A stretch of DNA of 58,882 nucleotides, taken from the NCBI GenBank assembly GCA_900299305.1, contig OMJJ01000119.1:1-58882 (forward strand), in the 5' to 3' direction. Numbering within the stretch: the first letter of the stretch is position 1; each line of letters opens with the position of its first letter. This document shows positions 3,946 through 28,081 of the stretch, one piece after another. The notes beneath the pieces were generated by a model. The model was not told the DNA's origin. It did no database searches and was given only the letters and a program-made list of their open reading frames with translations. A program made the position numbers and the translations under genes. This stretch comes from a bacterium (GTDB lineage: Bacteria; Armatimonadota; Chthonomonadetes; Chthonomonadales; Chthonomonadaceae).

Positions 3946-4743
3946 ATGAATTTTTTTGCACAACAGGCTACCAGTCCCATGTATGAAGTTCCCCCCACCG
4001 AAGTTTTGGCGAACATGAGCCTCGGCACAATAGGATTTATTGCGCTGATTCTTTCGTTGGTGCGTTTTGCTTTGCTAAACCCGTTCTCTAAGCGTCCCGC
4101 AACGGGCATGGCACGAGGTATCGCCGAGTTCGCAGAATCGATTCTGGTGGCATTGGTACTCGTCTTCTTGCTCATTCGTCCCTTTCTCTTGCAGGCGTTC
4201 TTTATCCCCTCTCAGTCGATGGAGAACACCCTTTTGGGGCATACGGCGGGCAAAGATGGCTACACCGATACCGTCAACGACCACATTTTCGTTAATAAAC
4301 TGGTCTTCCGCTATAGCGACCCCCAACACCAAGATATTATCGTGTTCCGCGCCCCCAAAGAGGCAGACCACGAGTCGAAGCGGCAGGGGCTTCCGCAGGT
4401 GGAAAACGTACTCATTAAGCGCGTGATAGGAACCCCCGGTGATACCCTTCAGGTCAAAGAGGTGGAGACTACCGAGGGCGGCGAGAAGCGACTGGTAAAA
4501 GCGGTGTTCCGCAATGGCGAGCAACTGAAAGAGCCGTACATAAAAGAGTCGATGGACGCGCTCACCCCGAATCCGTTTGCAGGTACGCCCCTGAAACTCG
4601 GTGCAAACGAGTACTTTGTGATGGGAGATAACCGCAACAACAGCAACGATAGCCGCTTCTGGGGAGTAGTTACCCGTGACCGCGTAATAGGCAAAGCCGC
4701 TTTTATCTTTATGCCCTTCAACCGTATGGGCAGAATAAGGTAG
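3946..4743 (+). CDS. lepB: Signal peptidase I (copy 2, tandem paralog)
   Basis: Same architecture and motifs (IPSQSMENTL, KRVIGTPGD, GDNRNNSNDSRFWG). Collinear with copy 1 over its full length. Confidence 0.9.
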   Translation: MNFFAQQATSPMYEVPPTEVLANMSLGTIGFIALILSLVRFALLNPFSKRPATGMARGIAEFAESILVALVLVFLLIRPFLLQAFFIPSQSMENTLLGHTAGKDGYTDTVNDHIFVNKLVFRYSDPQHQDIIVFRAPKEADHESKRQGLPQVENVLIKRVIGTPGDTLQVKEVETTEGGEKRLVKAVFRNGEQLKEPYIKESMDALTPNPFAGTPLKLGANEYFVMGDNRNNSNDSRFWGVVTRDRVIGKAAFIFMPFNRMGRIR

Positions 4744-12332: not shown

Positions 12333-12758
12333 ATGAAACGAAGTAGAAAAATAGGGCTGATAGCCCTCGTGTTGGTGTTATGCACGGGAGTAGTGGCTTC
12401 GGCGCAGTTGGGTTCTCTGTTCAAGGGGGGCGGTATCGCGTTTATCGTCTCGAAGTTTGGCAAAGACATCAACAAAGCCATTAACCGCCTTACGAAAACA
12501 GAAGACAAAACGGATACTTATGCCACAAAAGTAGTTCCTATTATCTCGGTGGGTAACGGGAAAGAGGCGGGTGCGTGTCAGATTATGGGGGCACCGGAAG
12601 CGGTGGAGAAGGTGGGGGCAGTAGCGCAGTTGGAAGGGGATTTTAGCATTGTGAAGGTGCGAATGCGCGGACTAATCCCCATTGAAGGCAAGGATGTAAG
12701 CCACTTAAAGCGCGTGGTGGGCGTGGGAGTAAGCGGTTTGCTAGATATTAAACTTTAA
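12333..12758 (+). CDS. Secreted hypothetical protein
   Basis: Signal peptide MKRSRKIGLIALVLVLCTGVVASAQ at the internal ATG 12333. No family recognised. Its 3-prime end overlaps the convergent operon by 11 bp. Confidence 0.5.
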   Translation: MKRSRKIGLIALVLVLCTGVVASAQLGSLFKGGGIAFIVSKFGKDINKAINRLTKTEDKTDTYATKVVPIISVGNGKEAGACQIMGAPEAVEKVGAVAQLEGDFSIVKVRMRGLIPIEGKDVSHLKRVVGVGVSGLLDIKL

Positions 12759-13758
12759 TGCTGAAGGAACTGTAAAAAATGGCATGAGTGCGGCGCAACA
12801 CGTTTCCTTGATAGCGGTAGCCCCCCATACCGTGTTCAATGTGGTGGTATTTATATGCCTTCTCTGGAGTCTCTGGTCTTATGGGAGGGCGAGGGGTAGG
12901 GTCATTTTCTATTTCGCCTGCCTTTTGCGAAGTCACTCCGGCTATGCCTTCGATACGCGTTATCCCTCGCTCCTCTATCTCTTTCTTACGCTGGTTTTGT
13001 ACAAAAAGGATGGCGGCTTGCATCTCTTGGAGCGTTTTGGAGTCGGTACTCTTTTTGAGGGCTGGAGAGAAGACAGGGCTGAAATAGAGGGCGGTATCCA
13101 ATTTGCGAAAATCGTTCTCTTGCCAATGTTGAGGGTTGGTCTTAGCAAAAGAGTCCCATTCCGCAACAAGTGTGTTGTAGCCCTGTTGTAGCAGAGTAAG
13201 GAGGGGCTGTATCTCCAACTCTGCTTTGTTTTGCATCAGGTTTTGTAGGGCTATCAAGCCATTTTCCCACGCACTCGTCTTTATTTCAAATGCGCTTTTC
13301 GTGGGGAGTATTTTTTGGGGGGCAGGAGGCTCTTTGGCTTTTTGGCGTTCTACCTCCCATTTTTGAAAGTGCAAATCTATCTCCGCAAGCCGTGCTAGAG
13401 TTGCTTTAAGAAGAAACTGTGTCTCGTTTTGTTGCTTTACAATCTGCTCTAAGGAGTTCGTAACGGTTTCCAGATTGGTGTTCGATTTTACTCCCTCTAA
13501 TGCCTCCAAAAGGGTTTGCGACTGACTTTGTAGGGTTGCCTCTATTGAGTTTACCCATAGAGGGCGTTTCGATTCTAAGATGCGCTCTGTCTGTTGCCCA
13601 ATTTGGCGCACTGTACTCTCCGCATCGTCGTCCTCTTCAATGTCGTTGTGCGTTGCATCCAGAAGACGGCTACGGAGTTCGCGCACTTGTGATGCAACTG
13701 CAAAAACCCCAAACAGTAGCAACACGGAAAGAATAGTAGGAATCCAGTCAAGTGTCAT
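12748..13758 (-). CDS. Membrane-anchored coiled-coil protein with GrpE-like C-terminus (paralog 2)
   Basis: N-terminal TM helix (IPTILSVLLLFGVFAVA) and a long Q/E/L-rich helical region. C-terminal RGITRIEG ... GGYRYQGNVLRRTHAIFY resembles the GrpE beta-domain (E. coli QKGYTLNGRTIRAAMVTV). AAGGAG RBS is present. Paralogous to 13777-15114. Confidence 0.5.
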   Translation of the reverse strand: MTLDWIPTILSVLLLFGVFAVASQVRELRSRLLDATHNDIEEDDDAESTVRQIGQQTERILESKRPLWVNSIEATLQSQSQTLLEALEGVKSNTNLETVTNSLEQIVKQQNETQFLLKATLARLAEIDLHFQKWEVERQKAKEPPAPQKILPTKSAFEIKTSAWENGLIALQNLMQNKAELEIQPLLTLLQQGYNTLVAEWDSFAKTNPQHWQENDFRKLDTALYFSPVFSPALKKSTDSKTLQEMQAAILFVQNQRKKEIEERGITRIEGIAGVTSQKAGEIENDPTPRPPIRPETPEKAYKYHHIEHGMGGYRYQGNVLRRTHAIFYSSFSIKV

Positions 13759-13776: not shown

Positions 13777-15114
13777 TTAGGATTGTGGCTCGCTTTTGCG
13801 GTAGTAGAGGGCATGGGTGGGTTGGTTGGCAATAACTTGTCCGTTATACTCATAACCTGCCCTACCCGGCACAATTCTATAGAACCGATACTCCAACTTC
13901 TCTTCTGGGGCAGGAATACGGAGCCTGTCATTTTGAGCATCTGCTTCTATTCTGCCCGGTGACATTCGGGAGGCGGTGGTCTCTTTTGCCGCTTGCTCTC
14001 CTATGCGATAGATACCGCGCTTTGCCAACTGCCGCTGTGCCTGTTGTTGTATTTGCTGAACCGTTTCGTGGAGTTGCGCCCAGTTCTTCGAGAGTGCAGG
14101 TGTCCAATCGCCTGTATCGACCTTGAATTCGCTGTAGAGTGCTCTGTCTAGGGGTTCTATATCGGTAGCGTTCCACTGTGTAGGGGATATTTTGGCGAGT
14201 TCATTCCAGCGTCCTACACTAAAGAAGGTGTATGTGTTACGAATCTGCGCCTCGATATCCGGAGCCGCCTGCTCTAGTTTTATCTTCAGTTTGGAGTACT
14301 CCATTTGAGTCACCCAACTCTCCATCAGCGATTCCCAAGTCGGCGCGAGGGTTGTGGATGAAGAGGGTACAAGACTAGGGCTATCCTGAATCGTTTTCGG
14401 TTCGGTAGCTTCTTTCTGTTGTTGAAGGAGAGCGTCTATTTTTGCGTACAGAGGTTGGATTGTGTCCTTGATTATCTTCTGCACATCTTCTTTTGAGAGG
14501 GCTTCGGGGGTAGAACGGTGAGGCTCAGAAGAGATTTCTTTGCTAAGGGGTATCTCCTGTTTCGCCCCAGCCTGTTCTTCTGCCCACAAGAGCATCATCT
14601 GAAGTCTTTCTGAGAGTTGTTCTACCTGGGTAGCAAGTGGTTGAAGTGCATCGAGTTGTTTGGCGACTGCTTGCCTCTCTTCTCCCTCAAGTTGCTTAAT
14701 GTTGGTTATGGCAACCTCCACTTTTGAGGCTACTTTGCCTATCTCTGGGTTGATACCATCCGCAAAATCATCTACAACAGTAGCGAGATTGTCTATGAGC
14801 CTCTTAACATCGTCATATCTTTTTGACATTTCTTCCACTATCTGCTCTCTGTGAGCCAGTAGCACCGCTTGCCATGCTACTTCTAACTGATTGGCATAAT
14901 CTCTGTGTACTCTGTCTACTATGATATACACAAGCACCACAATAAATACAAGTGAACTCATGGCTCCGAGTGCCGCCCACTTGTTGATTAGCCATGCGGC
15001 AAACTCCGTGCAGACTAACAGAGTTGCCAAAAAAATGAGCGGTTTTACAAAAGTAGGAGGCGGAGGAGTTTGCGTCTCTTCTTTTTGGGGTGGCATAGCT
15101 TGGGCTCCTAACAT
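13777..15114 (-). CDS. Membrane-anchored coiled-coil protein with GrpE-like C-terminus (paralog 1)
   Basis: Two N-terminal TM helices and a long coiled coil. C-terminal LAKRGIYRIGE ... AGYEYNGQVIANQPTHALYY is GrpE-like. The likely true start is ATG 15096, preceded by AGGAG. Confidence 0.5.
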   Translation of the reverse strand: MLGAQAMPPQKEETQTPPPPTFVKPLIFLATLLVCTEFAAWLINKWAALGAMSSLVFIVVLVYIIVDRVHRDYANQLEVAWQAVLLAHREQIVEEMSKRYDDVKRLIDNLATVVDDFADGINPEIGKVASKVEVAITNIKQLEGEERQAVAKQLDALQPLATQVEQLSERLQMMLLWAEEQAGAKQEIPLSKEISSEPHRSTPEALSKEDVQKIIKDTIQPLYAKIDALLQQQKEATEPKTIQDSPSLVPSSSTTLAPTWESLMESWVTQMEYSKLKIKLEQAAPDIEAQIRNTYTFFSVGRWNELAKISPTQWNATDIEPLDRALYSEFKVDTGDWTPALSKNWAQLHETVQQIQQQAQRQLAKRGIYRIGEQAAKETTASRMSPGRIEADAQNDRLRIPAPEEKLEYRFYRIVPGRAGYEYNGQVIANQPTHALYYRKSEPQS

Positions 15115-17555: not shown

Positions 17556-18356
17556 CTACTGCTTCCCTTGTTTTACGGAGTTGATAATTCCCCTAAAGGT
17601 GTTGATGGGTATGGCTACCTGCTTGTTGTTGCCGATGTCGTCGGGTGTGGAGGCGGTATTGATACCGATAAGCCGCCCCCTTTCGTCGATAAGCGGTCCC
17701 CCACTGAAGCCTTTCTGTATGGTACAGGTGTGTATGATAAGGCGTTGTTCGGTGTCACTGGGCAGGAATGCGGAGATGGTTCCGGTGGGCATATCTTGGC
17801 TAGGTGTCTTATCTCCGCTTCCGTCTATCATTGTCTTTCCGTAACCAATCGCAGTTACCTTTGCCCCCTTGTTGAAGGTGGTGTCATCTGCAATGGTGAA
17901 GTGAGCCAGCTTATCTGCCTGAACTTTAAGAATCGCGAAGTCGTTGGGGAGTTGTTTTAGGAATTCGGGGATAGTGTTGGCAGGAGTAGCACTCGCCTCT
18001 CCTTTTTGGGAAACGGTTGCACTCAACTTTATTGGCTTTGCGCTCCCGCTATCGAAGTACACTGTAATTGTGCTTGCTCCCGCAATAACGTGCCGATTGG
18101 TGAGGATGTATCCATCCGCAGTAAGTACACAACCCGTTCCCGACCCCGAATCGGTGACAATGAGGACTGTTGCAGCCTTCGCGTCGTTCGGCTTAAAGAG
18201 GGTGTAGAGTATCGTAACCACTACTATGGGAAGCAAAAGGGCGAGTAGTTTCGCAAGCGAGAAGTTCCCAATGGGTTTCGCGGCTGTTTTGGTAGTTGCG
18301 GTAGTAGTGGTGGTGCTACTGCTGGTAGTAGCCCAGTTATCGGAATAGTATCTCAT
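17556..18356 (-). CDS. Membrane-anchored trypsin-like (S1/HtrA-type) serine protease
   Basis: Ser/Thr-rich N-terminus, one TM helix, then triad motifs LTNRHVI (His), NDFAILKV (Asp) and GFSGGPL (Ser). ATG 18356 has an AAGGAG RBS that overlaps the stop of the upstream gene. Confidence 0.85.
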   Translation of the reverse strand: MRYYSDNWATTSSSTTTTTATTKTAAKPIGNFSLAKLLALLLPIVVVTILYTLFKPNDAKAATVLIVTDSGSGTGCVLTADGYILTNRHVIAGASTITVYFDSGSAKPIKLSATVSQKGEASATPANTIPEFLKQLPNDFAILKVQADKLAHFTIADDTTFNKGAKVTAIGYGKTMIDGSGDKTPSQDMPTGTISAFLPSDTEQRLIIHTCTIQKGFSGGPLIDERGRLIGINTASTPDDIGNNKQVAIPINTFRGIINSVKQGKQ

Positions 18357-18367
18357 AGCACCTCTCC

Positions 18368-21300
18368 TTATCGGGTGAGCTGGGTCGCTCTTATTTGGTG
18401 TGAACTGCACTCTACGTTATTACAAGGGGCTTTGAAGAGAGGGCGCACTCTGCCTTGTACCGCATTACAGGTTTTGCAACGCCATGTCTCTCTCTCGCTG
18501 TCCCACCTTGCCCAGATGTGCATGGCGGTAATGTCTTCGGCATTTAGGTCGGTGTAATGCCCCAAAAGCCACTCGCTAAACCGTTCTATCGCATCCTCAA
18601 AAACGAGCCCTCCCAAATCTAGGTCATCATAGTAGCCTGTGGACTGCCCCGAGTTGATAAGCTCTTGCAGTGCCTTCGAGTGTCCGATGATGGTTTTCTT
18701 TACGTAAGCGTCGTTGTAGTTTCGGGTTGCGTCACCTATCTCATTCAGGCGTGTTTCGAGGTAAAGAATGGTGTGTTCGTGTTGTGCAAGCGCGAGTGCC
18801 GCTCGCTGAATATCACGATTGGGGTACGAAATTTGACGCGCCCCGTCGTTTCGGTTGATGGTGTACATTAGGGTATGTTGCGCCCCATCCCAAGAGATGT
18901 TGACGCCCTCTGTCCAGCCCTTTTTGGGGCGCGAAGCCAACGCTTCTGAGATGAGCAGGAGTGTTTTCGCCTTCTCTATCACGTTGGGAGGCAATATCAG
19001 CGTAATAGAGCGTTGGGTGAAAGGAGTGGTTTGGTTTTGCGCGTTGGGCGGGAACAGAATGCTACGCCGTCCCGCAATCTCATATCCGCTAATGACGTGA
19101 GAGGGAAATGCCCCCCGCACAAAGAGGTTGGCTACCACGCCGGGGTCATCATGTTCCGCAGGGCTGGCGCAAGGGTTTGCACTGAGAGTCTCTGCAAACT
19201 CTGCGGTAGCGATTTTCATTCCCTCCTGAAAGGTTTCGTACAGTTCTACATCGTTAGCACGGTGGGCAAGAGACTGCCACACAAACGTAGAGGTGGAGAA
19301 ACTGCTTAGGAGTTCGGCATATCCCGGAGTTCCGAGTTGTAGGCTGAGTAAAGGACGACCCTCTCGTGCAAGGTCGGCGCATATTTTGGAAAGGTTTTCG
19401 GGGTTTTCCAGCTCGCGCCCACGCTCTGTATGAGAGAGCATTCGCAAAACAGAGATGTTTACTGCTTGCTGACGACCTATGTTGTCTTCGTTGCGGAGTT
19501 GGGTTTCGATTTTACTTTTTAGAGGGTCGAACAGGCTAAAATCGACATCTCCATTGGCACGTCTTGGAAGCCCTGCACGGAAGTTTCCGTTGTTCATACG
19601 GTGTTGTAAATCGGCAAGGCTATGGAGGCTAATGTCGTTTTGCAGTTGGTCGAGTTGCCTTGATACCCATTCTGCGTCGAAGACGTTATCGGAAAAGAGG
19701 TCACGAATCAGTCTTTGGTCACTGGCATCGTTTCGGCTTGCCGCATAGTTCCACTGTTCTACGTAGTCGATAAAGTTAGCCACCTGACTATAGAGGCTCT
19801 CTTCGCCAGTTCTTAGGTCTCGTAGCACATCATCGTATATCTGTAGTCGGGCAGATACCAAGCATCGTTCATAGAGGTTGTTGGCGCGGTAGGCTTTTTC
19901 AAGTAGGTTGTCGTTGCTAATCGTGACCACCTCTTTAACCACTTTCGGCTTGGCTTTGTGGAAGGGAATCAGCGGGTCTACTGGAGGTTTCTCCTCTACC
20001 TCTTCCTCTTCTACTTCCACCTTTGTCGTCTTTTGCGGTACTCCAGTACCTGCGTTCTTGAGTACTTTCGCCATGAGTGCGTGGTCTGCGCTCATCTCTT
20101 TGTCGAGTGCGATTGCCAAACTGAGGGCATAGCGGGGTCCCTTACTTTGGTCGAAGACGAGCGGAAGTAGGTGGAGGCGTACTCTGTGTTTAACGACCCT
20201 CTGCCCACTTTTAGCGATAAGGTCTTCCTTGTTACGCTCTATGGTTCCTGCAATGTAGCCCGGCGTTTGCGGTGCTAGGTACTTTGTGGGTATGGGAGAG
20301 GGGAACTGGTTGGTGAGATCACTCTCTGTGGAGCTACGGGTTACGTTACGGAGTACCGCCTCTAGGCTCTCCGAGTCGGTTTGAATCAGCTCTTTATAGA
20401 GGGGGTCTTTGTTGGTAGCCCACTCCTTCTCTGCGGCGATGTCGGGAGGAAGTCGCAATCCCACAATATCGCGTAGTGTCTGTAGGTCGGCTTCAAAGAG
20501 TACCGTGAGATCTTCGTCCTCTTTCAGAAATCTTTGGTTAAGAGCAGGAGTGTCAATTTCGGAGGGTTTAAGCCAAAACTGTATCAGTTTTTGAATAATC
20601 TGGCGTTGGGCGATATTGATGCACAGCCCTATAGGAAACTGCCGTAGCCCAATACCGAAAGTGGTGTAGCGGTTGGGATAGCCGTGGTTATCAGCGGGGA
20701 GCGACGAGAAGTTCTGCTGCATATCGTGGATACGCGCCCCGAATGCATTGCGTCCTCCTTTGGAGGTAAGACGCATAAAGAGATAGTCGGAAATCTTTTT
20801 CTCTAGTATCGCCATTGCGTCACGGGCGTTTTCGGCGAGGTTGTTCTCTAGTTGGCGTGGAGATACGAGAGTTATCAGGTCATAAGGAGCCTGTTTTCCG
20901 ATGTCGGGGGGCAGGGACTCCTCTCCGTACTGGGCTTGAAAGATGTTCTCGGCTTTACAGAAGTGGTCGAGTTCTTGTACCAGTGCTACAGAGTTTCGCA
21001 TCTGCGAGGGCCAGTCGGTTAGCCCAACGGAGGCGATAGCGGCGATGCCTTCGGTTTCACAGATACCGGGGCTGATGTTAGAGCGCCGTATAGCGTTTGT
21101 GAGCAGATAGCCGAAGTCGATAAAGGTTCCGGAGCCGGTTCCTCCTCCTCCCGAAGCCACTACAAAGACGAGCATAGAACCCGCGTCGTTGCCGGTGGTA
21201 TCAGTGCGAAGGGCGAGAATATCTTTGAGGATACGAGAGCGCAGTTCGTGCAGGTTACTGGTAGCGAGTAGAGAGAGTCGCCCCATCATGCGTACCCCTT

Positions 21301-21625
21301 TTACACCACCCTCGAAGTTCTGAGCGGTGATGTTTTGGCGCAGAATGGGGTCAAACCAGTCTTTCATGCGTAGGGTGGCAGAGGTGGGCGAGTCGGGCTG
21401 TTGGAGGTCTACCATCTTTTGAATGGGAACTCGTAGCGGGTAGGCGTTATCTCGAAATTTTTCTAGTGCCTCGTTGTCGCGCATATCGGTATCTATAAAT
21501 AGGTAGCGCATATTGGGTGGGTCGGGGGTTCCATACGCCATCTGAAAACGTTTGCGGAGGTTATAGACGACCTCTTTACCGGTACCACCGAGTGCTATTA
21601 CTAATCCGGGGCGATTGAGATTCAT
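18368..21625 (-). CDS. Giant tubulin/FtsZ-superfamily GTPase-like protein (Tubulin_2/FtsZ-like type) with C-terminal zinc ribbon
   Basis: N-terminal VIALGGTGKEVV (T1-like loop) and an exact tubulin signature SGGGGTGSGTF at aa 158-168 (nt 21128-21151). Long helical remainder with an acidic KVEVEEEEVEEKPP linker, and C-terminal CKTC...CNNVEC. Confidence 0.75.
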   Translation of the reverse strand: MNLNRPGLVIALGGTGKEVVYNLRKRFQMAYGTPDPPNMRYLFIDTDMRDNEALEKFRDNAYPLRVPIQKMVDLQQPDSPTSATLRMKDWFDPILRQNITAQNFEGGVKGVRMMGRLSLLATSNLHELRSRILKDILALRTDTTGNDAGSMLVFVVASGGGGTGSGTFIDFGYLLTNAIRRSNISPGICETEGIAAIASVGLTDWPSQMRNSVALVQELDHFCKAENIFQAQYGEESLPPDIGKQAPYDLITLVSPRQLENNLAENARDAMAILEKKISDYLFMRLTSKGGRNAFGARIHDMQQNFSSLPADNHGYPNRYTTFGIGLRQFPIGLCINIAQRQIIQKLIQFWLKPSEIDTPALNQRFLKEDEDLTVLFEADLQTLRDIVGLRLPPDIAAEKEWATNKDPLYKELIQTDSESLEAVLRNVTRSSTESDLTNQFPSPIPTKYLAPQTPGYIAGTIERNKEDLIAKSGQRVVKHRVRLHLLPLVFDQSKGPRYALSLAIALDKEMSADHALMAKVLKNAGTGVPQKTTKVEVEEEEVEEKPPVDPLIPFHKAKPKVVKEVVTISNDNLLEKAYRANNLYERCLVSARLQIYDDVLRDLRTGEESLYSQVANFIDYVEQWNYAASRNDASDQRLIRDLFSDNVFDAEWVSRQLDQLQNDISLHSLADLQHRMNNGNFRAGLPRRANGDVDFSLFDPLKSKIETQLRNEDNIGRQQAVNISVLRMLSHTERGRELENPENLSKICADLAREGRPLLSLQLGTPGYAELLSSFSTSTFVWQSLAHRANDVELYETFQEGMKIATAEFAETLSANPCASPAEHDDPGVVANLFVRGAFPSHVISGYEIAGRRSILFPPNAQNQTTPFTQRSITLILPPNVIEKAKTLLLISEALASRPKKGWTEGVNISWDGAQHTLMYTINRNDGARQISYPNRDIQRAALALAQHEHTILYLETRLNEIGDATRNYNDAYVKKTIIGHSKALQELINSGQSTGYYDDLDLGGLVFEDAIERFSEWLLGHYTDLNAEDITAMHIWARWDSERETWRCKTCNAVQGRVRPLFKAPCNNVECSSHQIRATQLTR

Positions 21626-21658: not shown

Positions 21659-21979
21659 TTAAGCGTCTAGGCGTGGGCATTTCAGCCAGAAGTAGGCAAG
21701 CAGTCCTCCAAAGAGGGCTACCAGTAGAAGCGTATTGAGTAGAGCCATCATATCCCCCGCCCAGAACGCAAGGTACTCTGTGTGTGGAGAGGAGACAAGA
21801 ATCATATAGAGCAGTAGCCCCCATAACCCTGCCGTCCATGCGTAGCGAATGGCATCGGAGGGAGAGAGTTTACACAGGCGCAAAAAGAGGGGATATAGTA
21901 GTAGATAGACCAGCAAAAATGTTGCCGCAAACTCGATGAAGAGCCAAAGCAACGCATTGGGATTTGTAACAAGTAGCAT
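21659..21979 (-). CDS. Small integral membrane protein (about 3 TM helices)
   Basis: 106 aa from ATG 21979, with an AAGGAG RBS 9 nt upstream. Hydrophobic throughout. The longer track ORF (to 22105) would overlap the vWA gene. Confidence 0.6.
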   Translation of the reverse strand: MLLVTNPNALLWLFIEFAATFLLVYLLLYPLFLRLCKLSPSDAIRYAWTAGLWGLLLYMILVSSPHTEYLAFWAGDMMALLNTLLLVALFGGLLAYFWLKCPRLDA

Positions 21980-22002: not shown

Positions 22003-23397
22003 TTACTGGCACACATTGTTTTGAGTGCGCGGAACTACCTGTTCCGTGCTGGGCTTGGGTTGATAGAACAGAGCAAAAAAGATAAAAACTCCCATGGCGG
22101 CCCAACAGGCAATCTGCCTGAATTTGAGGTTCGTGGCTGTGGCGGCAGTGCTTGCTCCGAGTGTGAAGTCGAGTTCTACTTCTATGCCGTTTCGGGGAAT
22201 GAGGTAGAGCCGTGTGAGTGCTTCATACGGAAGCGTAACAGGCTCGGTATGTTCTAGGTATCTGTTTTCGCTTAGGAGTTTTATGTCGGGGTGCACCTTT
22301 TCCAAGAGGCACTCGCCGGTAGTCCCTTCGCTCAGAGAGAGGGTGAGCAGGAGTTCTGGGATAAGTGTTTTGCCCTGTGCCCCTAGGGATAGGGGGAGGT
22401 AGATGTCGTATGGGTTGCTTGGTTTGGCACTAGACTCACACGCAAAGATTCGGATACTCTGATTTTCTGCCGTTAAGGTGCGTGGCAGCGCGTTTCGAGA
22501 GTCGGCGCGGAGCGTGACGCTGGTTTTCAATCGCTTGGTTCCTTGCCTAGACTGAACCGCGAAAAACCCCAACACTCCCGCAACTATAACAGCCAACACT
22601 TTCACAGGAGTTGCGGAAGGGGTAGTACTTACCTCGTAGGGAGTGTCGTTGGTGAGGAGTATCTGATTACGCACTTCGATAACGCTCTGTTTCCCTTTTG
22701 CCTCTGCCTCTATTGCCCACAGTATGAAATAGGTGAGCGACTTTTTGTCTTCTCCTATGCGATCTATACGGGTCTCTTTCATGCCGTTTTCGCTGGTAGT
22801 AAGGCTTTTTAGAGCTTCCCGATAGGCGTTTTCGTTGCCGTTGGTTCCAGCGGTTCCTTTTTTGTGGGTAATCAGCACTGCAACAACGCGGTGGTACTTG
22901 TCTTCTTTTTGGATACGGCTGGCTTGTACCATCAGTTGGTTCCGTGCCTCGTAGTAGCTGTCTTGCACCGCAGATTTGGGGGCGGTAAAGAGGGTATTCA
23001 GGCGACCCCCAAACATTTCGCGGTCATTAAACTCTTTGTTACTAATCTCACCGGGGGCAAGTTGTACCGCGGTATCGAAGTGGTAGAGGGTAAGCCTATC
23101 TTTAGCGGTAAGGAAGTTGCTTCCAATACGTATTAACGCCCACTGCACATCGTTAAGGGGAGTGCCGTGCATTCCTCTAGCGGTATCGACCATAAGGACG
23201 AGGTGGAGTGGATACTTGCAGGGGTTTACCTCTTTTGCAAAGGTTTTAGAAAGAAGTGCCTCGTACAGTTTGTACTGCTCTTGTGCGGAAGCATCAGCAC
23301 GGCAACGCAGGGGTACACCGCCCATCAGAAGGCAGAGCAACAGGGTACTCCAAAGAGGCGCGGGGTATGCGGTTTTCCGTAGAGAGCGTAGTAGCAT
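22003..23397 (-). CDS. vWA-domain membrane protein
   Basis: Signal peptide, then a vWA fold start HLVLMVDTARGMHGTPL (DxSxS degenerated to DTARG). A TM helix follows (VLAVIVAGVLGFFAV), then an about 150-aa domain and a C-terminal TM helix. Confidence 0.7.
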   Translation of the reverse strand: MLLRSLRKTAYPAPLWSTLLLCLLMGGVPLRCRADASAQEQYKLYEALLSKTFAKEVNPCKYPLHLVLMVDTARGMHGTPLNDVQWALIRIGSNFLTAKDRLTLYHFDTAVQLAPGEISNKEFNDREMFGGRLNTLFTAPKSAVQDSYYEARNQLMVQASRIQKEDKYHRVVAVLITHKKGTAGTNGNENAYREALKSLTTSENGMKETRIDRIGEDKKSLTYFILWAIEAEAKGKQSVIEVRNQILLTNDTPYEVSTTPSATPVKVLAVIVAGVLGFFAVQSRQGTKRLKTSVTLRADSRNALPRTLTAENQSIRIFACESSAKPSNPYDIYLPLSLGAQGKTLIPELLLTLSLSEGTTGECLLEKVHPDIKLLSENRYLEHTEPVTLPYEALTRLYLIPRNGIEVELDFTLGASTAATATNLKFRQIACWAAMGVFIFFALFYQPKPSTEQVVPRTQNNVCQ

Positions 23398-23410: not shown

Positions 23411-24853
23411 TTACAAAGAGGGTAGGGCTTTGATTTGCATACCGCCGTTGTTCATAGTAAAGAACACAAGGCGGTTGGCGGTATAGAAGATGCGTATTTG
23501 TCTGTCGCTACCAGGAAAGATGTTGATGAACTGCATGGGTTTGAGCGGAGGTCTGCCCCATGCAAAATAGTGGCTATCTTGGTCTTGGGAGTGAAAAATA
23601 AGAAAGGGAGTACTCTGGCTATACGGAACCAGGAACATCTCGATATTCTCCGTAACGCCTGCATCCATGATATGTGTGTCTCTATAGGTTGCGTTCGCGG
23701 GTCTCTCTCTGCTTAGGCAGAGGAGAGTGAGGCTTTCGTCGAACGCATAGAAGTAGTCTTCTTCTATAAGCAGAGAGCGCAGATGGCGGTGTGGTGTCCA
23801 GTTTAGGCTGTGTTGTCTCTGCTGTGCGAAACTCCCTACCGGAAAGACGATAATCTGATACCTGCGCTGGTTGGAGTTATCTTGGGATTCGTAGTAGATA
23901 ACGGCTCCAAAATTTTTGCCTACGTGCCATGCTTGAATGTGGTGAAAGGGGGTACGGATGATTGGCAAAACATCAAGCACCGGAGAGGCATCTTCACCCG
24001 TTCTGATATGATAGAGCGCACCATTTTGTGCGAGCACATAGAACCCTGTTGCGTGTGGCAGAATACGGCGCGGCGGCAGGTTTTCATAGCTGACGTTGGT
24101 AAGAGGTTTTATGGTACGGGGGTGGGTATTGTTACGACAGAGGTCACTTATCGCATAGAGGCGTGCCTCTTGGGTCTGGTGTGTGCTACCTACTACTAGC
24201 AGATGCTCTTGGTTTAGGCAGGTAGTCAACTCCTGAAAATCCTCTACAGAGAACTCAAATAGGGGTGCGCCGCTTCCGGTATGAAACCCGCATATCTGGT
24301 TTTTATGGCGTACCACAAAGGCGTAGGTTCCCACTTCTAAGGAGGTAGGTACATAGGAGCCAATCATCGTGCTTGCTAGTTGCGGCAGTGTGGTGTGCAT
24401 TTGGGGGAGTGTTTGCAGGGTACTCATATCTATTACCTCAATACTCCCAGACATAGTAAGGCAGTAGAGGCGATTGTGGCGTAGTTGCGCTTCGCGCAGG
24501 AGGGGCATTCCTGCTAAGGGGTAGAGGGTTTCGCCGATGTCGGAGGGAGTAGGATACTCTGCATTTCTTTTTGCGTAGAGGGCATTTGCCGCTAACACAT
24601 CCCCACTTGCAGGTAGAAGGTCGTAGAGAACGCTCTCTGCACTCTTATCCGCACTGCAAGAGATGGGGGCTCCGTGTTCGTTGTAGCGGTAGAAGGTGCC
24701 ACAGGAGGCACAAAAAGGGGTCTGTTGGTAGGGTACCATAGCCTTACAGTCGGGTGCAAGGCAACGCGCCAAATGAGCCGTACCACAACGAGAGCAGTAG
24801 CGATAGTTACTGCTAATCTCTGGTAATATCTTTCCGCAGTGGCATATTGACAT
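23411..24853 (-). CDS. Double zinc-ribbon protein with C-terminal beta-propeller-like domain
   Basis: N-terminus CHCG...CSRCG...CLAPDC...CASCG. The remaining about 400 aa show repeated beta-strand blocks (LYCLTMSGSIEVID, YAFVVRHKNQICGF, FYVLAQNGALYHI) reminiscent of PQQ/BamB-like propellers. I prefer ATG 24853 over the TTG at 24913. Confidence 0.55.
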   Translation of the reverse strand: MSICHCGKILPEISSNYRYCSRCGTAHLARCLAPDCKAMVPYQQTPFCASCGTFYRYNEHGAPISCSADKSAESVLYDLLPASGDVLAANALYAKRNAEYPTPSDIGETLYPLAGMPLLREAQLRHNRLYCLTMSGSIEVIDMSTLQTLPQMHTTLPQLASTMIGSYVPTSLEVGTYAFVVRHKNQICGFHTGSGAPLFEFSVEDFQELTTCLNQEHLLVVGSTHQTQEARLYAISDLCRNNTHPRTIKPLTNVSYENLPPRRILPHATGFYVLAQNGALYHIRTGEDASPVLDVLPIIRTPFHHIQAWHVGKNFGAVIYYESQDNSNQRRYQIIVFPVGSFAQQRQHSLNWTPHRHLRSLLIEEDYFYAFDESLTLLCLSRERPANATYRDTHIMDAGVTENIEMFLVPYSQSTPFLIFHSQDQDSHYFAWGRPPLKPMQFINIFPGSDRQIRIFYTANRLVFFTMNNGGMQIKALPSL

Positions 24854-25089
24854 AAAATATCTCTCTGTTTCTGATAGAATCTTCCCTCGTATTTCGCAAA
24901 CCCAAATGCACAATACTCACTTCTATACCAGTGCATCATACAAAAACAAAAAGTGCGTACAGTTACTTCAATATAGTCAGTATGATTTCTTGTACTGGCA
25001 CAATGATACATAATACTCAAAATGTAGAAGAAGTGTCGACATATACTACCACAAACCTCGTAAAATTCCTATCCAATCCTCTAAAATTA

Positions 25090-25119
25090 TTGACAAGTAC
25101 TATGTTATTTATTTATAAT
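25090..25119 (+). promoter_or_regulatory. Sigma-70-like promoter for the 25262 gene
   Basis: TTGACA (25090-25095), 18-nt spacer, TATAAT (25114-25119), within an AT-rich divergent intergenic region. Confidence 0.45.
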
Positions 25120-25261: not shown

Positions 25262-27262
25262 ATGATATTTCTGCCCTTCTTTGTAGATGACCCTAGTGAT
25301 ACCATCAGAAACACCTACCCTCATACTCTGTTTGCCCTAGAGCATCGAGAGCGTTTTCGTAATGTGATATCCCGTATAGACAACGATTCCAGCCGGCTAG
25401 GAATGGTAAGCTATGCCTGGCCCGAACTCCGCACCACCTGCCAAAAGGTGTTTGCTTATAAGTGCGCTTTCTGTGAACGTGCTTTACACCAAGAAGAGGA
25501 GCAGACTCTTACCTACTGGCGGCCTTCTGGATATACTGCCAACCCCTCGACAGGGGTTGTTGAGGGAGGGCAGTATCCATGGCTACAGAATGAGGCACGC
25601 AATGTCTACTATGCTTGTGCCGCCTGTATCGCCGCCAAAGGACACTATTTTCCTATCTGGGGTACGAGACAGGTACCCGGGTCAGATTGGGAAAAGTGCC
25701 GTGACGAGAAGCCACGGCTACTTGCTCCTTATGAAGAGAATCCCAACGCCCACCTTATTTTTGAGAGCGATGGAACGGTAAATTCAAATACAAAAAAAGG
25801 AGTGGCTACCATCACTACCTTTGACCTGAATAGGGAGTCGCTAGTAATAGAACGCCAAAGTGCCTACCAGCAGGTGTATAACTGGCTTGACACCTATACC
25901 GAGAGTAGCCGCGATGCGGAGTTCCAGTTGCGTGGGCTACTGGATATTATGCAACCCTTTGCCATGTGCAAGCGGCAAGCCTTGCGGCAATATACCGAAG
26001 AGAGGCTAAAGCAGGACAAACTTACCCCCTTCCATGAACAGTGGCGAAATACCATTATTGAGCAGGATGAAGCGATACTAGCCGCTACACAAAAGATATA
26101 CCTTAGCCCCATTGTGCCAATGTCGGATTCGGATGTAGAGACCAAGATGTTAGGGGACACTACCCCCATTCTCAAAAAAGTGGTCATTACAAATTTTCGA
26201 GGAATTAAATCGCTTACCATTACCATGCCAGACGCAAAAACTCCTCGTAGTAGGACTTATCGTACCGAACTGGGGCGGCTCTCTGCTTCGTATAATGAAT
26301 CCTCTCCAGAGACGTGTGTACCCAGCATGGTGCTGCTAGGGGAAAATGGTGCCGGCAAGACCGATGTGCTACAAGCCATTGCGCTTGCACTTCTCTCAGA
26401 CCAGCATCGGAATCAGAGCTTGTTACATCTCCCTCCATACAACGAACTACTGCACAAAGGGGAATCGAAAGGCAAGATAGAGGTTGATATGAGTACGGGA
26501 ACCTTTCAGTTTGAGTTTACGGCAAGCGGTGGCACTCAAAAGTATATACCTCATAGAACAGGACACCCCACTCCCCCAGTAGTGGTATTGGGTTACGGAA
26601 CCTTCCGCGACATTTTACTCGAAAACAGAAGGGCGGAAGGGGAACCGTTTCCCATCTGTAATCTATTCGATAACCAAGATGCTCTGCTTAAAGTAAAGTG
26701 GAACCCCGATGAGATTGAAGAGGTACTCAAGATGGCGATGCGCCTTGTCCCCAATGCCGTCCTTCGTTTTACTGCAGCATTCGGAGCAGAGATACAGGAT
26801 ATTAGAGTGGAGCATTGCGACGATGGAGAGATACCCCCGCATCACCACTCCAACGGACATCGGACCGTCGTCTTTTTGGTATGCGATATCATTCATAAAC
26901 TACTCCACTTCGCAAAACAGTCATCCGCACTAAGCCTCTCAAAACAGATACGCTTCACAAAGGCAGTGATACTTATCGACGAACTAGAGTCACATCTCCA
27001 TGTAAGTTGGAAACGTGAGATTATGCCGCGGCTTCGGGAGGAGTTTCCCCAAGTGTCATTTATCGTAACGACCCAAGACCCATTTTTAACGCTCTCCATG
27101 AACAAGGACGAAGTACTACGTCTGTACCGACAAAAGAATGGAGAGATTGGACAAGAGCCTATCAACTGTGAGGAAATCCGTACTACTACCCTTGAGGAGA
27201 TAATGGACACGGATGCCTTTGGGACACCAGAAGGCTGGTATGATACCCTTATTACTGATTAG
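25262..27262 (+). CDS. Fusion protein: N-terminal HNH-like (TIGR02646/PtuB-like) domain plus C-terminal ABC/AAA_15-type ATPase (PtuA-like)
   Basis: N-terminus CAFCE...TYWRP...NVYYACAACIAAKG..FP...LLAPYEENPNAHLIFESDG follows the TIGR02646 HNH layout. C-terminus has Walker A LLGENGAGKTD, Walker B VILIDELESHLH and a FIVTTQDP switch. Confidence 0.65.
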   Translation: MIFLPFFVDDPSDTIRNTYPHTLFALEHRERFRNVISRIDNDSSRLGMVSYAWPELRTTCQKVFAYKCAFCERALHQEEEQTLTYWRPSGYTANPSTGVVEGGQYPWLQNEARNVYYACAACIAAKGHYFPIWGTRQVPGSDWEKCRDEKPRLLAPYEENPNAHLIFESDGTVNSNTKKGVATITTFDLNRESLVIERQSAYQQVYNWLDTYTESSRDAEFQLRGLLDIMQPFAMCKRQALRQYTEERLKQDKLTPFHEQWRNTIIEQDEAILAATQKIYLSPIVPMSDSDVETKMLGDTTPILKKVVITNFRGIKSLTITMPDAKTPRSRTYRTELGRLSASYNESSPETCVPSMVLLGENGAGKTDVLQAIALALLSDQHRNQSLLHLPPYNELLHKGESKGKIEVDMSTGTFQFEFTASGGTQKYIPHRTGHPTPPVVVLGYGTFRDILLENRRAEGEPFPICNLFDNQDALLKVKWNPDEIEEVLKMAMRLVPNAVLRFTAAFGAEIQDIRVEHCDDGEIPPHHHSNGHRTVVFLVCDIIHKLLHFAKQSSALSLSKQIRFTKAVILIDELESHLHVSWKREIMPRLREEFPQVSFIVTTQDPFLTLSMNKDEVLRLYRQKNGEIGQEPINCEEIRTTTLEEIMDTDAFGTPEGWYDTLITD

Positions 27263-27538: not shown

Positions 27539-28081
27539 CTAGTTGGCATCTAGCCACTGCACTGCGGCAAGCACCGTTGTAAAGGTAACAGCGGGAACCA
27601 AGAACTGCTCTTGGCACACCGATTCGCCTGCGATGTACTCCGTTGCACCGGTATCAGCACCCAACTTTAGGCGCAGTTCGCGGCGGCAGTTACGAATAAC
27701 CATGCCGCAAGAGCCATCCAGGAAGATAGCCTCCTCATTCGGGGCTTTCGCCTCTAGGTCGCTTACCACCCAAAAGACATAAGGGCGGCTACCCAAAACC
27801 TGCTCTAGTGCCTCTCGTACTTTGAGGTACTGCTCTTGGCAGTAGGGCGTTAGTTGTAGGTAAGGGCTTGCATCTAGTCCTACGCGGGGGAGTACCTGTG
27901 CCATCTCCCAACCAAATTCGCGACAGAGTAGGTAGATTTCGCGCTCACCTATCTCTTGTGCCTCTCCTGCTTCCATCTGCGCGAGGCGTAGTTCCGATAT
28001 GCCCGTCTCTTGGGACAGAGCATAGATGCTGAGTTGCGCGGCGGCTCGCGCTTGGGCTAAAAGGATGTCAAACATGTTCAT
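27539..28081 (-). CDS. XRE-like HTH domain protein with uncharacterised C-terminal domain
   Basis: N-terminal LLAQARAAAQLSIYALSQETGISELRLAQMEAGE resembles a Cro/C1-type HTH. The C-terminal about 110 aa are unrecognised. Confidence 0.5.
   Translation of the reverse strand: MNMFDILLAQARAAAQLSIYALSQETGISELRLAQMEAGEAQEIGEREIYLLCREFGWEMAQVLPRVGLDASPYLQLTPYCQEQYLKVREALEQVLGSRPYVFWVVSDLEAKAPNEEAIFLDGSCGMVIRNCRRELRLKLGADTGATEYIAGESVCQEQFLVPAVTFTTVLAAVQWLDAN

Follow-up and report, generated by a model that had tools for sequence, protein, structure and literature searches.

Sequence profiles and structural modeling indicated that the 1085-aa protein studied here, encoded in a 58,882-nucleotide stretch of DNA (the window), is truly related to tubulin and FtsZ, although very divergent, and belongs to the FtsZl1 branch (Pfam Tubulin_2). 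FtsZl1 is an already named family, and the protein does not represent a new type. The family was described by Makarova and Koonin (2010, Biol Direct 5:33; PMC2875224); its typical members, ~1050 aa long, contain a coiled-coil or helical region and end in an alpha-helical C-terminus, and T6-H7/T7 elements cannot be identified in them. The architecture of the window protein fits that description. The likeness extends to a divergent FtsZ-like GTPase domain at the N-terminus that carries GGGTG(S/T)G, a length of ~1000–1100 aa with a helical middle, alpha-rich C-terminus and no T6-H7/T7 elements, and an operon with a vWA-domain protein, several TM proteins and lineage-specific extra genes. Specific to this case is an Armatimonadota subfamily, not available in 2010, within a conserved operon. 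Based on this operon and its context, we infer, with about an even chance of being right, that FtsZl1 is a GTP-regulated hub in an accessory, NTP-thresholded, envelope-spanning conflict or stress module.

The FtsZl1 gene has an ATG start with an AGGAG Shine-Dalgarno motif ~10 nt upstream, and its product, as the initial annotation had stated, is about three times the size of FtsZ. Its full-length homologues share 27–63% identity. The Pfam match to Tubulin_2 (PF13809; aa 8–348) scored 123.7 bits (cut-off 27; E 1.4e-35) and covered profile positions 1–355 of 356. The AlphaFold2 (AF2) model of aa 1–440 had a pLDDT of 84.2 and a pTM of 0.79, and its top 50 PDB matches in Foldseek were FtsZ, CetZ, TubZ or tubulin (E ~6e-7, probability 1.0, TM 0.47–0.51 per target), with alignments covering nearly the whole FtsZ core (~306/307 residues). 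The viral top 10 were phage FtsZ, PhuZ or tubulin-like proteins. Alignment by hhalign of a 159-sequence family profile to E. coli FtsZ gave a probability of 87.8% (E 3.3e-6; 78–88% over the hhalign comparisons made), with T1, S2, the T3-like loop, T4 and S5 confidently aligned. Together, these three independent tests identified aa 8–348 as a tubulin/FtsZ-type GTPase domain whose nucleotide-binding loops are intact, and bore out the tubulin-superfamily reading of the initial annotation, for which a profile search and an alignment of the T loops had been proposed.

The T1-like loop noted initially, ALGGTGKEVV, aligned to FtsZ GVGGGGGN, with G13 present in 100% and G16 in 97% of the 159 family members. 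The T3-like loop (pattern GVxGxRxxGR), aligned to FtsZ GAGANPEVGR, has G107, R112, G115 and R116 conserved in 89–97% of these members, and T4 has G161–G166 conserved in 92–100%. The T1 and T4 glycine motifs were invariant or nearly so both in 16 full-length homologues and in the 159 diverse members. In a six-frame translation of the window, GGGTGSG was expected ~0.001 times and observed once. The initial annotation was correct in reporting this signature; the span given (aa 159–166, nt 21128–21151) takes in one extra preceding Gly (GGGGTGSG), and the 7-mer itself is aa 160–166 (nt 21128–21148). No recognisable T7 loop had been seen, which agrees with there being no conserved acidic residue after the H7-like helix across the 159 members, and the Pfam search found neither an FtsZ_C nor a Tubulin_C domain in the protein. 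In the AF2 model, an H7-like helix is retained and an H8-like helix comes after it, and D301 in this region is conserved only within the subfamily; it is paired with FtsZ D212 where the hhalign alignment has low confidence, which counts against the module reading. Beyond the nucleotide loops, W90, R112, R116, N211, E218, G324 and P331 were near-invariant in the family.

The long helical region and acidic linker described initially were both recovered in the AF2 model of aa 351–1085. The middle region has long helices at ~aa 496–524, 572–605 and 611–641, with no Pfam match and no significant structural counterpart in the PDB (best E 0.078). Two linker segments (aa 531–549 and 556–570) had pLDDT below 50, and the acidic run within the predicted disordered linker occurs only in the three closest of the 16 full-length homologues compared. 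The C-terminal alpha/beta domain formed AF2 blocks of pLDDT 72–91 over model residues 531–730 and has conserved columns in the alignment of full-length homologues; a 303-aa protein (P0057) matches aa 776–1070 of FtsZl1 alone. The terminal cysteine knuckle of the initial annotation was found as CKTC (aa 1050–1053) followed by C1068 and C1073 (Cx4C), in a pattern, W-R-C..C...C.N..C, kept in 13 of 16 close homologues. Among 154 long family members, 38, about a quarter, have a similar C-terminal CxxC...Cx2-5C, and the zinc ribbon counts among the differences of the window protein from the family (Table 1).

Table 1. Positions of features of the FtsZl1 gene and its operon in the window (for 18368..21625, the stop codon is counted within the end coordinate).
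Feature	Position	Strand	Basis
FtsZl1/Tubulin_2-family protein, 1085 aa	18368..21625	-	ORF, Pfam PF13809 E 1.4e-35, full-length homologues
N-terminal tubulin/FtsZ-fold GTPase domain, aa 8-348	20582..21604	-	Pfam, AF2, Foldseek, hhalign
T1-like glycine loop ALGGTGKEVV, aa 11-20	21566..21595	-	conservation, FtsZ alignment
T3-like loop GGVKGVRMMGR, aa 106-116	21278..21310	-	conservation, FtsZ alignment
T4 signature GGGGTGSG, aa 159-166	21128..21151	-	motif and conservation
Middle region, family-specific, mostly alpha-helical, ~aa 350-880	18986..20578	-	AF2 model aa 351-1085
Disordered linker (predicted), aa 531-570	19916..20035	-	pLDDT below 50
Acidic EVEEEEVEEK, aa 537-546	19988-20017	-	inside predicted disordered linker
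C-terminal alpha/beta domain, ~aa 880-1085	18371..18985	-	AF2 blocks, conserved columns
Zinc-ribbon knuckle, C1050-x2-C1053 ... C1068-x4-C1073	18407..18478	-	motif scan and conservation
Promoter-like site, 10/12 consensus matches, upstream of first operon gene	25010..25039	-	consensus match only
First gene: N-terminal double zinc ribbon, beta-rich C-terminal region, cytosolic	23411..24913	-	weak Pfam DZR/Zn-ribbon matches
Divergent vWA-domain membrane protein, 464 aa	22003..23397	-	orthologue motifs, profile matches, TM scan
Small membrane protein, ~106 aa, 2-3 predicted TM	21659..21979	-	TM scan
TM-anchored trypsin-like serine protease	17556..18410	-	Pfam Trypsin_2 8.8e-24; TM 50-68
Hsp70-like (actin-fold) ATPase, 807 aa	15130..17553	-	Pfam HSP70 3.6e-13; conserved partner
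445-aa protein: 2 TM, coiled coil, conserved C-terminal domain	13777..15114	-	
336-aa protein: 1 TM, coiled coil, conserved C-terminal domain; last operon gene	12748..13758	-	

The FtsZl1 gene is the fourth of eight co-directional, tightly spaced genes with intergenic gaps of 2 to 33 nt, and the gene order is kept around homologues of only 27–40% identity, Armatimonadota relatives included. The sole overlap (43 nt) arises from the listed GTG start of the trypsin gene and is removed by an in-frame ATG at 18356. Promoter-like sites in the region were not more numerous than expected from shuffling. TM segments were predicted in five of the eight products. The first product is 500 aa from a TTG start (~480 aa from an in-frame ATG), showed no TM segment or P-loop in a sequence scan, and has orthologues upstream of the tubulin-like gene in five loci (L001, L003, L004, L007 and L088). 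The vWA protein, whose presence fits the expectation for FtsZl1, has a signal-like N-terminus and TM segments at 263–281 and 426–444. Its MIDAS motif is degenerate (DTARG, with TH replacing TD), which differs from the family and counts against the module reading; its orthologues carry DVSxS and TD, one of them matches Pfam VWA at 2.9e-5, and the top PDB matches of the vWA profile were weak (E 0.017–1.4) but all vWA domains. In L001, L004, L005, L007, L009 and L088, the small membrane protein gene directly precedes the tubulin-like gene, and the protease gene, in whose product the His, Asp and GFSGGP Ser motifs can be read, lies downstream of the tubulin-like gene in all orthologous loci. The Hsp70-like ATPase, like the first product a cytosolic protein, has an N-terminal zinc ribbon (CHHC...CVYC), the motifs IDFGT, DSGAGTTD and TGGSTFIP, and partial NCBIfam matches to HscA/DnaK. 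Of 50 evaluable Tubulin_2 loci, which represent several phyla, 15 have an Hsp70-like gene in the same orientation no more than 6 kb downstream; Pfam HSP70 confirmed six of these genes, all in other phyla. The 445-aa and 336-aa proteins are paralogues encoded by adjacent genes.

Compared with the FtsZl1 family, the window operon has no protein kinase or P-loop GTPase, and has instead the trypsin-like protease, the zinc-ribbon Hsp70-like ATPase and the zinc-ribbon/beta-rich protein. The family search found 1594 representative clusters, with a median length of 1053 aa among the matches listed; only 15 of the 1594 clusters matched at E <= 1e-30, indicating that the full-length subfamily is small. 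In the genome collection searched, which holds one genome per species, the full-length matches (L005–L008) were all Armatimonadota MAGs, and complete operons came only from Armatimonadota genome loci and unclassified metagenome contigs. Flanking genes vary from locus to locus. Next to the window operon, in divergent orientation, is a Septu gene in which PtuB and PtuA are fused (PADLOC E 5e-90). A cluster from Acidobacteriota that combines Tubulin_2 and Hsp70-like genes with one for a GrpE-domain protein directly follows Azaca ZacB and ZacC (E 8e-187 and 1201 bits), and transposase genes flank one orthologous operon. Four orthologous operons (L088, L090, L091 and L092), unlike that of the window, add a 3-TM protein with a long cytoplasmic tail, one with a weak Pfam MotA_ExbB match, and a single-TM OmpA-like protein. 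This pair resembles ZorA/ZorB (MotAB-like) of the envelope-anchored defence system Zorya by analogy only; the window operon has no ZorC or ZorD equivalents, and its only PADLOC signal of this kind was a weak ZorA match of the 445-aa protein (E 0.0014).

A P-loop or dinucleotide-binding Rossmann fold as the source of the glycine-rich motifs has next to no likelihood: such loops alone are not fold-specific, but the full-length Tubulin_2 match, the exclusively FtsZ/tubulin-superfamily Foldseek matches, each at probability 1.0, and the hhalign alignment refute it, and the protein has no Walker A motif. We also consider it very improbable that the protein is a paralogue of cell-division FtsZ or a plasmid or phage segregation tubulin of the TubZ/PhuZ type. 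FtsZ, TubZ and PhuZ share the fold and were among the best structural matches, with the T1, T3 and T4 loops of FtsZ alignable, and the neighbouring tubulin-fold and actin/Hsp70-superfamily genes and the membrane association recall the FtsZ-FtsA pair. However, the best Pfam family was Tubulin_2, not Tubulin or FtsZ_C; the similarity to FtsZ is limited to short motifs, a PDB sequence search returned no match at all, and the family profile reached only 9–10 bits around T4. It has no T7 NxDxxD, FtsZ_C or C-terminal FtsA/ZipA-binding peptide, it is three times longer and its C-terminal domains are unrelated, and its partner is Hsp70-like rather than FtsA-like. TubZ and PhuZ, divergent prokaryotic tubulin-fold proteins of ~310–450 aa, are plasmid- or phage-encoded and have a working T7 and C-terminal tails driving filaments, whereas this gene is chromosomal, with no dcw, plasmid or phage context and with housekeeping neighbours (mnmG, rnhB and lepB).

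A housekeeping membrane-remodelling or cytoskeletal machine, in which FtsZl1 filaments at the membrane would shape or remodel the envelope with vWA, TM and OmpA-type partners (vesicles, envelope biogenesis), was the original proposal for the family (PMC2875224), and we regard it as possible but rather unlikely. The TM segments, the vWA partner, the 3-TM/OmpA-like pair and the peptidoglycan or glycosylation genes adjoining some loci favor it. Against it are the sparse, patchy distribution and varying flanks, the Septu, Azaca or transposase genes in three contexts, the lack of both elements through which FtsZ and tubulin form filaments, the T7 loop and the C-terminal domain, and the protease and Hsp70-like ATPase, which are atypical as cytoskeletal accessories. 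It is similarly doubtful that FtsZl1 is a GTP switch that binds and slowly hydrolyses GTP as a monomer or dimer, with the helical and zinc-ribbon portion as the functional scaffold and no cytomotive filament. The missing T7-type residue and FtsZ_C/Tubulin_C domains, and a C-terminal 735 aa with no structural relative, point to this, but the near-invariant residues listed above could form a different interface or active site, and the H7-like and H8-like helices and nearly the whole FtsZ core are retained. To our knowledge, all tubulin/FtsZ-superfamily members characterised so far polymerise.

The conflict or stress module is backed by the small subfamily, its restricted distribution, the varying flanks, the Septu, Azaca and transposase adjacency, and the GAP1-N2/DO-GTPase conflict systems of Kaur, Burroughs, Iyer and Aravind (2020, eLife 9:e52696; PMC7159879). 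In these NTP-dependent systems, which include tubulin and HSP70 components and in which HSP70-family components and zinc ribbons recur, a Tubulin_2-type protein whose C-terminus bears a helical extension is linked to vWA membrane proteins, and a Paenibacillus homologue (P0024) sits in a locus of this type, where Pfam detects DO-GTPase and GAP1-N2. Here, in Armatimonadota, the tubulin and Hsp70-like genes instead lie within one operon. Several observations count against the module: Pfam found no DO-GTPase or GAP1 (N2/M) gene, which define those systems, and no FNIII-repeat protein was found in the window operon; defence genes adjoin only two of ~9 independent contexts, and others adjoin genes for the cell wall or glycosylation (amidase and racemase, FtsW-PBP, glycosyltransferases); and the partner set is fairly constant, where conflict systems typically have hypervariable effectors. 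In addition, neither PADLOC nor NCBIfam has a model that fits the protein. No experiment on FtsZl1 members was found in the searchable literature, and GTP binding, hydrolysis and assembly are therefore deduced here.

We do not think that the FtsZl1 operon is a cell-division or housekeeping cytoskeleton. In the conflict or stress module, FtsZl1 would bind GTP, and its nucleotide state would control self-association and partner binding at the cytoplasmic face of the membrane. Because the protein has neither a canonical T7 loop nor an FtsZ_C/Tubulin_C domain, any assembly and GTPase activation would use an interface other than that of FtsZ/tubulin protofilaments, probably one that involves the helical region together with the H8-like helix conserved in the subfamily (R298, D301 and N305). 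The Hsp70-like ATPase may act as a further partner driven by nucleotide and assemble or remodel the complex, which the vWA protein, the TM components and the membrane-anchored protease would tie to the cell envelope.

Examination of the open reading frame designated FtsZl1 indicated that the gene is real, as had been noted, encoding 1085 aa from an ATG start with a ribosome-binding site, AGGAG, ~10 nt upstream. The T1-like glycine loop, the tubulin/FtsZ signature GGGTGSG, the acidic run and the terminal cysteine knuckle (CxxC...CxxxxC) described in the initial annotation were all found (see table), although the range first noted for GGGTGSG had taken in one additional preceding glycine. GGGTGSG was observed once in the window, against a chance expectation of ~0.001 per six-frame translation. 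As there was no second tubulin-signature ORF in the window, a canonical ftsZ was not found there. The T1 and T4 motifs were both kept across the family (16 homologues; 159 members), and both aligned to the corresponding T1 and T4 loops of FtsZ by hhalign.

The proposal that the N-terminal domain belongs to the tubulin superfamily was supported by profile searches, structural comparison and profile alignment. The profile search suggested at the outset matched Pfam Tubulin_2 (PF13809) over the whole domain and above the curated threshold (aa 8-348, profile positions 1-355 of 356, E 1.4e-35, 123.7 bits versus a cut-off of 27). An AlphaFold2 (AF2) model of aa 1-440, produced with 33 homologues, had a pLDDT of 84.2 and a pTM of 0.79. 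The best 50 PDB matches of this model by Foldseek were without exception FtsZ, CetZ, TubZ or tubulin (probability 1.0, E ~6e-7 to 1e-5, TM 0.33-0.51 per target), and the best 10 matches among viral structures (BFVD) were phage FtsZ, PhuZ or tubulin-like proteins. In local mode, hhalign paired E. coli FtsZ with the 33-sequence family profile at 78% probability and with the 159-sequence profile at 87.8% (E 3.3e-6). The confident blocks were T1 (GLGGTG/GVGGGG), S2 (the DTD motif), a T3-like loop (GVxGxRxxGR paired with FtsZ GAGANPEVGR), T4 and S5. A PDB sequence search with the FtsZl1 protein alone gave zero matches, the family profile retrieved only 9-10-bit FtsZ matches near the T4 motif plus coiled-coil noise, and no NCBIfam or PADLOC model matched the protein.

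The Pfam, Foldseek and hhalign results therefore excluded an unrelated P-loop or Rossmann fold, which the initial annotation had named as the outcome contrary to its reading, and a motif scan found no Walker A motif in the FtsZl1 protein. A canonical division FtsZ, typified by Pfam Tubulin and FtsZ_C domains, a length of ~350-450 aa and a dcw context, was also rejected: the match was to Tubulin_2 and the neighbourhood was not dcw.

The T7 "synergy" loop, at the start of H8, bears a catalytic acidic residue in FtsZ (NxDxxD) and in alpha-tubulin (E254). No position past the H7-like helix was D or E in at least 50% of the 159 family members, which bore out the lack of a T7 loop noted by eye. Judged from this alignment, the absence of T7 is a trait of the whole family. 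Within the Armatimonadota subfamily, R298, D301 and N305 were conserved on the H8-like helix. The D301 position (14/16 D, 2/16 E) was conserved only in this subfamily and paired with D212 of E. coli FtsZ only in a low-confidence stretch of the hhalign alignment; we treat this possible correspondence as a lead, not a result. Pfam FtsZ_C and Tubulin_C had no match in the FtsZl1 protein. Past the H8-like helix the AF2 model was irregular with few strands, yet the Foldseek alignments covered ~306 of 307 FtsZ residues.

These features are consistent with those of a family already named. Tubulin_2 is the FtsZl1 family of Makarova and Koonin 2010 (PMC2875224), to which the Pfam model has been tied (PMC9871819). 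In FtsZl1, the T6-H7/T7 elements were not confidently identifiable and an FtsZ-type C-terminal domain was absent, and FtsZl1 operons were reported to encode vWA proteins and lineage-specific membrane proteins (PMC2875224). The protein in the window had the family architecture of an FtsZ-like N-terminus, an extended helical or coiled-coil region and an alpha-rich C-terminal domain within ~1000 aa (the latter parts as modelled for aa 351-1085). The description of the protein as giant fits the family norm, the median length of 173 retrieved relatives being 1053 aa. Of the 1594 representative clusters that the protein matched at E <= 1e-3, 174 remained at a threshold of 1e-10 and 15 at 1e-30. Over 159 diverse members, conservation extended to G13, G14, T15, G16, D45, T46, W90, G107, R112, G115, R116, S158, G161-G166, D170, Y173, N211, E218, P247, G324 and P331. 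Full-length homologues from metagenomes and MAGs were 981-1089 aa with 27-63% identity. Armatimonadota accounted for the full-length matches in the genome collection and for most of those ranking next. Identity was 63% for an Armatimonadota MAG, 71% over aa 3-437 for an uncultured Chthonomonas sp. and 39% for a MAG assigned to Chthonomonas calidirosea; Chthonomonadaceae and Capsulimonadaceae MAGs were also among these relatives. They make a Chthonomonadales-like Armatimonadota bacterium the most likely source of the window. The window protein is a new member of a family that is already named and widespread, and what had been flagged as unusual about it belongs to the traits of that family.

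The remainder of the protein (aa 351-1085) was modelled separately with a pLDDT of 74.8. Foldseek of this model against the PDB identified nothing significant, the best match having an E of 0.078 and matches being to generic helical-repeat proteins with TM <0.15, and Pfam had no match within aa 441-1085. The acidic run was confined to the three closest sequences. The zinc ribbon was kept in 13 of 16 close homologues, and 38 of the 154 long members of the family had a similar pattern. By these comparisons neither feature is exclusive to the window protein; a specific function for the acidic linker is improbable. A 303-aa representative (P0057) aligned with the query at aa 776-1070 only (E 2e-20), and may be either the alpha/beta and zinc-ribbon domain as a standalone protein or a truncated gene call.

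The FtsZl1 gene is the fourth of eight co-directional, tightly spaced genes (24913-12748, minus strand; see table). Gene order was kept even where the homologue shares just 27-37% identity, with one or two protease genes depending on the locus. The assignment of the 464-aa membrane protein as a divergent vWA protein was based on its orthologues, which have DVSxS and TD and one of which matched Pfam VWA (2.9e-5), and on its family profile, whose top PDB matches were all vWA domains, if weak; the window's own copy had no Pfam match. In that copy the MIDAS is degenerate, with DTARG for DxSxS and TH for TD, and more distant orthologues (in loci L001, L088 and L086) retain DVSxS and TD. In the window's lineage the vWA domain may therefore be independent of metal. 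If the trypsin-like gene starts at its listed GTG, it shares 43 nt with the 3' end of FtsZl1, an overlap avoided by an in-frame ATG at 18356, and the cytoplasmic N-terminus of the protease has a Thr/Ser-rich run, TTSSSTTTTTATTKT, ahead of its TM anchor. In the closest full-length relative (63%), the Hsp70-like gene was called as two ORFs of 254 and 525 aa, which could reflect a frameshift, a pseudogene or faulty assembly.

The 445- and 336-aa proteins end in a domain with the motif GGYRYxGxVLRxTxA, which resembles the GrpE C-terminus (KGYTLNGRTIRAAM). This motif, along with a GrpE-domain gene in an Acidobacteriota cluster, prompted the idea that they are membrane-anchored GrpE-like exchange factors; hhalign gave only 3-4% probability and Pfam GrpE matched 0 of 7 members, so the idea was not supported and is no more than a lead. 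A weak PADLOC match of the 445-aa protein to ZorA (E 0.0014) was treated as a coiled-coil artefact. In four orthologous loci, a protein with three TM segments and a long cytoplasmic tail, together with a single-TM OmpA-like protein, was inserted between the protease and the Hsp70-like gene. The pair resembles the ZorA/ZorB or MotA/MotB arrangement, and the 3-TM protein had one weak Pfam MotA_ExbB match. Homologues of the pair were absent from the window.

Features of the FtsZl1 protein, its operon, the surrounding window and related loci
Feature	Position	Length	Remarks
T1-like loop, ALGGTGKEVV	aa 11-20		GGTG at aa 13-16
T4 signature, GGGTGSG	aa 160-166		nt 21128-21148 (-)
Long helices in mostly helical region	~aa 496-524, 572-605, 611-641		AF2 model
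Disordered segment with acidic run	aa 531-570		AF2 model
Acidic run, EVEEEEVEEK	aa 537-546		
Well-predicted alpha/beta domain ending in Zn ribbon	~aa 880-1085		AF2 model
C-terminal Zn knuckle	C1050-x2-C1053 ... C1068-x4-C1073		
Operon gene 1		500 aa	Double Zn ribbon and beta-rich region, cytosolic
Operon gene 2	22003-23397 (-)	464 aa	Membrane protein, divergent vWA domain
Operon gene 3		~106 aa	Small TM protein
Operon gene 4	18368-21625 (-)	1085 aa	FtsZl1
Operon gene 5	17556-18410 (-)	284 aa	Trypsin-like protease, N-terminal TM anchor, intact His/Asp/Ser triad
Operon gene 6		807 aa	Hsp70-like ATPase, N-terminal Zn ribbon; phosphate-1, phosphate-2 and adenosine motifs intact
Operon gene 7	13777-15114 (-)	445 aa	TM and coiled-coil protein, paralogous to gene 8, conserved C-terminal domain
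Operon gene 8	12748-13758 (-)	336 aa	TM and coiled-coil protein, paralogous to gene 7, conserved C-terminal domain
Tandem signal peptidase I (S26) paralogues	3112-3912, 3946-4743 (+)		
GAF-PAS-GGDEF diguanylate cyclase	6875-8407 (-)		
Promoter-like site	25090-25119 (+)		5' of Septu gene
Fused Septu PtuB-PtuA	25262-27262 (+)	666 aa	
HTH gene	27539-28081 (-)	180 aa	
Hsp70-like gene called as two ORFs	L004 14043-16481		Locus of closest full-length relative
Inserted 3-TM/OmpA-like pair	L088 14212-17294; L090 7665-10192; L091 14411-17073; L092 13927-16658		Orthologous operons
Azaca-adjacent cluster	L066 1178-19633		Pyrinomonadaceae (Acidobacteriota) MAG
Hsp70-superfamily ORF directly 3' of Tubulin_2	L024, L030, L031, L048, L056, L062, L066, L070 (and L022, L047)		Loci outside Armatimonadota

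The other genes of the window include mnmG, rnhB, two lepB and a GGDEF gene, which indicates a chromosome and not a phage or plasmid; the signal peptidase paralogues and the diguanylate cyclase are ordinary chromosomal genes. Of the possible signs of an island boundary, tRNA genes were absent from the window, and the GC content of the operon did not deviate markedly. Divergently adjoining the operon is a separate gene for a fused Septu protein, with an N-terminal HNH-like PtuB (PADLOC E 6e-27) and an ATPase, PtuA (E 5e-90). A perfect TTGACA-18-TATAAT sigma-70 consensus lies 5' of this gene; in the promoter/terminator scan overall, the count of sites was not above shuffle expectation. Beyond the Septu gene are an HTH gene and a gene for a 659-aa protein without known function, an arrangement kept in related loci (L004, L007). 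In the Acidobacteriota locus L066, three unknown genes lie immediately downstream of the Azaca genes ZacB and ZacC. Tubulin_2 and an Hsp70-like gene come next, then a 449-aa gene and one whose 730-aa product has a GrpE domain at its C-terminus. A tubulin and Hsp70 cluster thus adjoins a known defence system in a second, independent case.

Tubulin-domain, vWA and HSP70 proteins have been described by Kaur et al. 2020 in GTPase-centred conflict systems defined by DO-GTPases and GAP1 (PMC7159879). The window operon shares with these systems a tubulin-domain protein, a vWA membrane protein and an HSP70-family component, but the defining DO-GTPase and GAP1 genes are absent from it. Pfam DO-GTPase2 matched none of the operon proteins and none has a Walker A motif, phmmer with a Paenibacillus DO-GTPase2 found nothing in the Armatimonadota loci, and GAP1 (GAP1-N2/GAP1-M) had no Pfam or phmmer match at the operon. 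Pfam detected both DO-GTPase2 and GAP1 in the Paenibacillus locus used as a positive control (L087); the Paenibacillus homologue P0024 sits in precisely this kind of system, with VWA, Tubulin_2, VWA, DO-GTPase2 and GAP1-N2/M. We would describe the operon as a lineage-specific "theme" within the known FtsZl1 systems and would not place it in the DO-GTPase/GAP1 class. In 15 of 50 evaluable Tubulin_2 loci, Armatimonadota included, the 6 kb downstream contained an Hsp70-like ORF on the same strand, and Pfam HSP70 was confirmed for six of these 15 neighbours. Such loci include Acidobacteriota, WOR-3, Planctomycetota, Treponema and Candidatus Thiomargarita, and Tubulin_2 and Hsp70-like NTPases appear to be a recurrent gene pair.

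Based on these data, we favor, at about even odds, a role for FtsZl1 as a GTP-regulated hub close to the membrane. In this role FtsZl1 would bind GTP, the Hsp70-like ATPase, the envelope-facing vWA protein and the protease would act with it in an accessory conflict or envelope-stress module, and any assembly would employ an interface unlike the T7 contact of FtsZ and tubulin. An accessory or conflict role is favored by the small and patchy distribution of the full-length subfamily, the variation of flanking genes between loci, the Septu neighbour, the Azaca-adjacent Acidobacteriota cluster and the transposases that flank one orthologous operon. Against it, other loci adjoin cell-wall or glycosylation genes, the partner set is fairly constant, and PADLOC-DB v2 has no defence-system model for the operon, whose partners gave generic protease-domain matches and two marginal ones. 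Of the two main alternatives, the original proposal that FtsZl1 functions in membrane remodelling is possible, though we do not consider it probable. The other, a non-polymerising GTP switch, is a mechanism compatible with either role and is given about the same weight.

The operon and the Tubulin_2/Hsp70-like pair, present in ~30% of sampled loci from several phyla, might represent a distinct, undescribed envelope-spanning machine. Its core would be a joint assembly of the tubulin-fold GTPase with the actin/Hsp70-fold ATPase, free of DO-GTPase and GAP1. Polymerisation or GTPase activation would then be T7-independent, acting through family-specific residues such as R112, R116, N211 and E218, or through the subfamily residues R298, D301 and N305, and the output would be protease-mediated anti-phage or envelope-stress signalling. 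We consider this reading unlikely.

Few branches of the tubulin/FtsZ superfamily are as divergent as FtsZl1/Tubulin_2, which is widespread and raises the question of how a tubulin fold operates without the T7 loop and the C-terminal domain. Sixteen years after its description, we found no experimental study of the family in the searchable literature, and the residual interest of the locus lies there and in the Armatimonadota operon being a clean variant, with tubulin-like, Hsp70-like, protease and degenerate vWA genes. The locus leaves knowledge of the family unchanged and offers a compact, well-conserved example. Its full-length orthologues reach as low as 27% identity, and one of them is from a MAG assigned to Chthonomonas calidirosea, a thermophile in culture. 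As its partners are defined (protease, Hsp70-like ATPase, vWA protein and TM anchors) and it is free of DO-GTPase and GAP1, the locus is a reasonable place to begin biochemistry and to ask whether tubulin and Hsp70 modules serve in defence.
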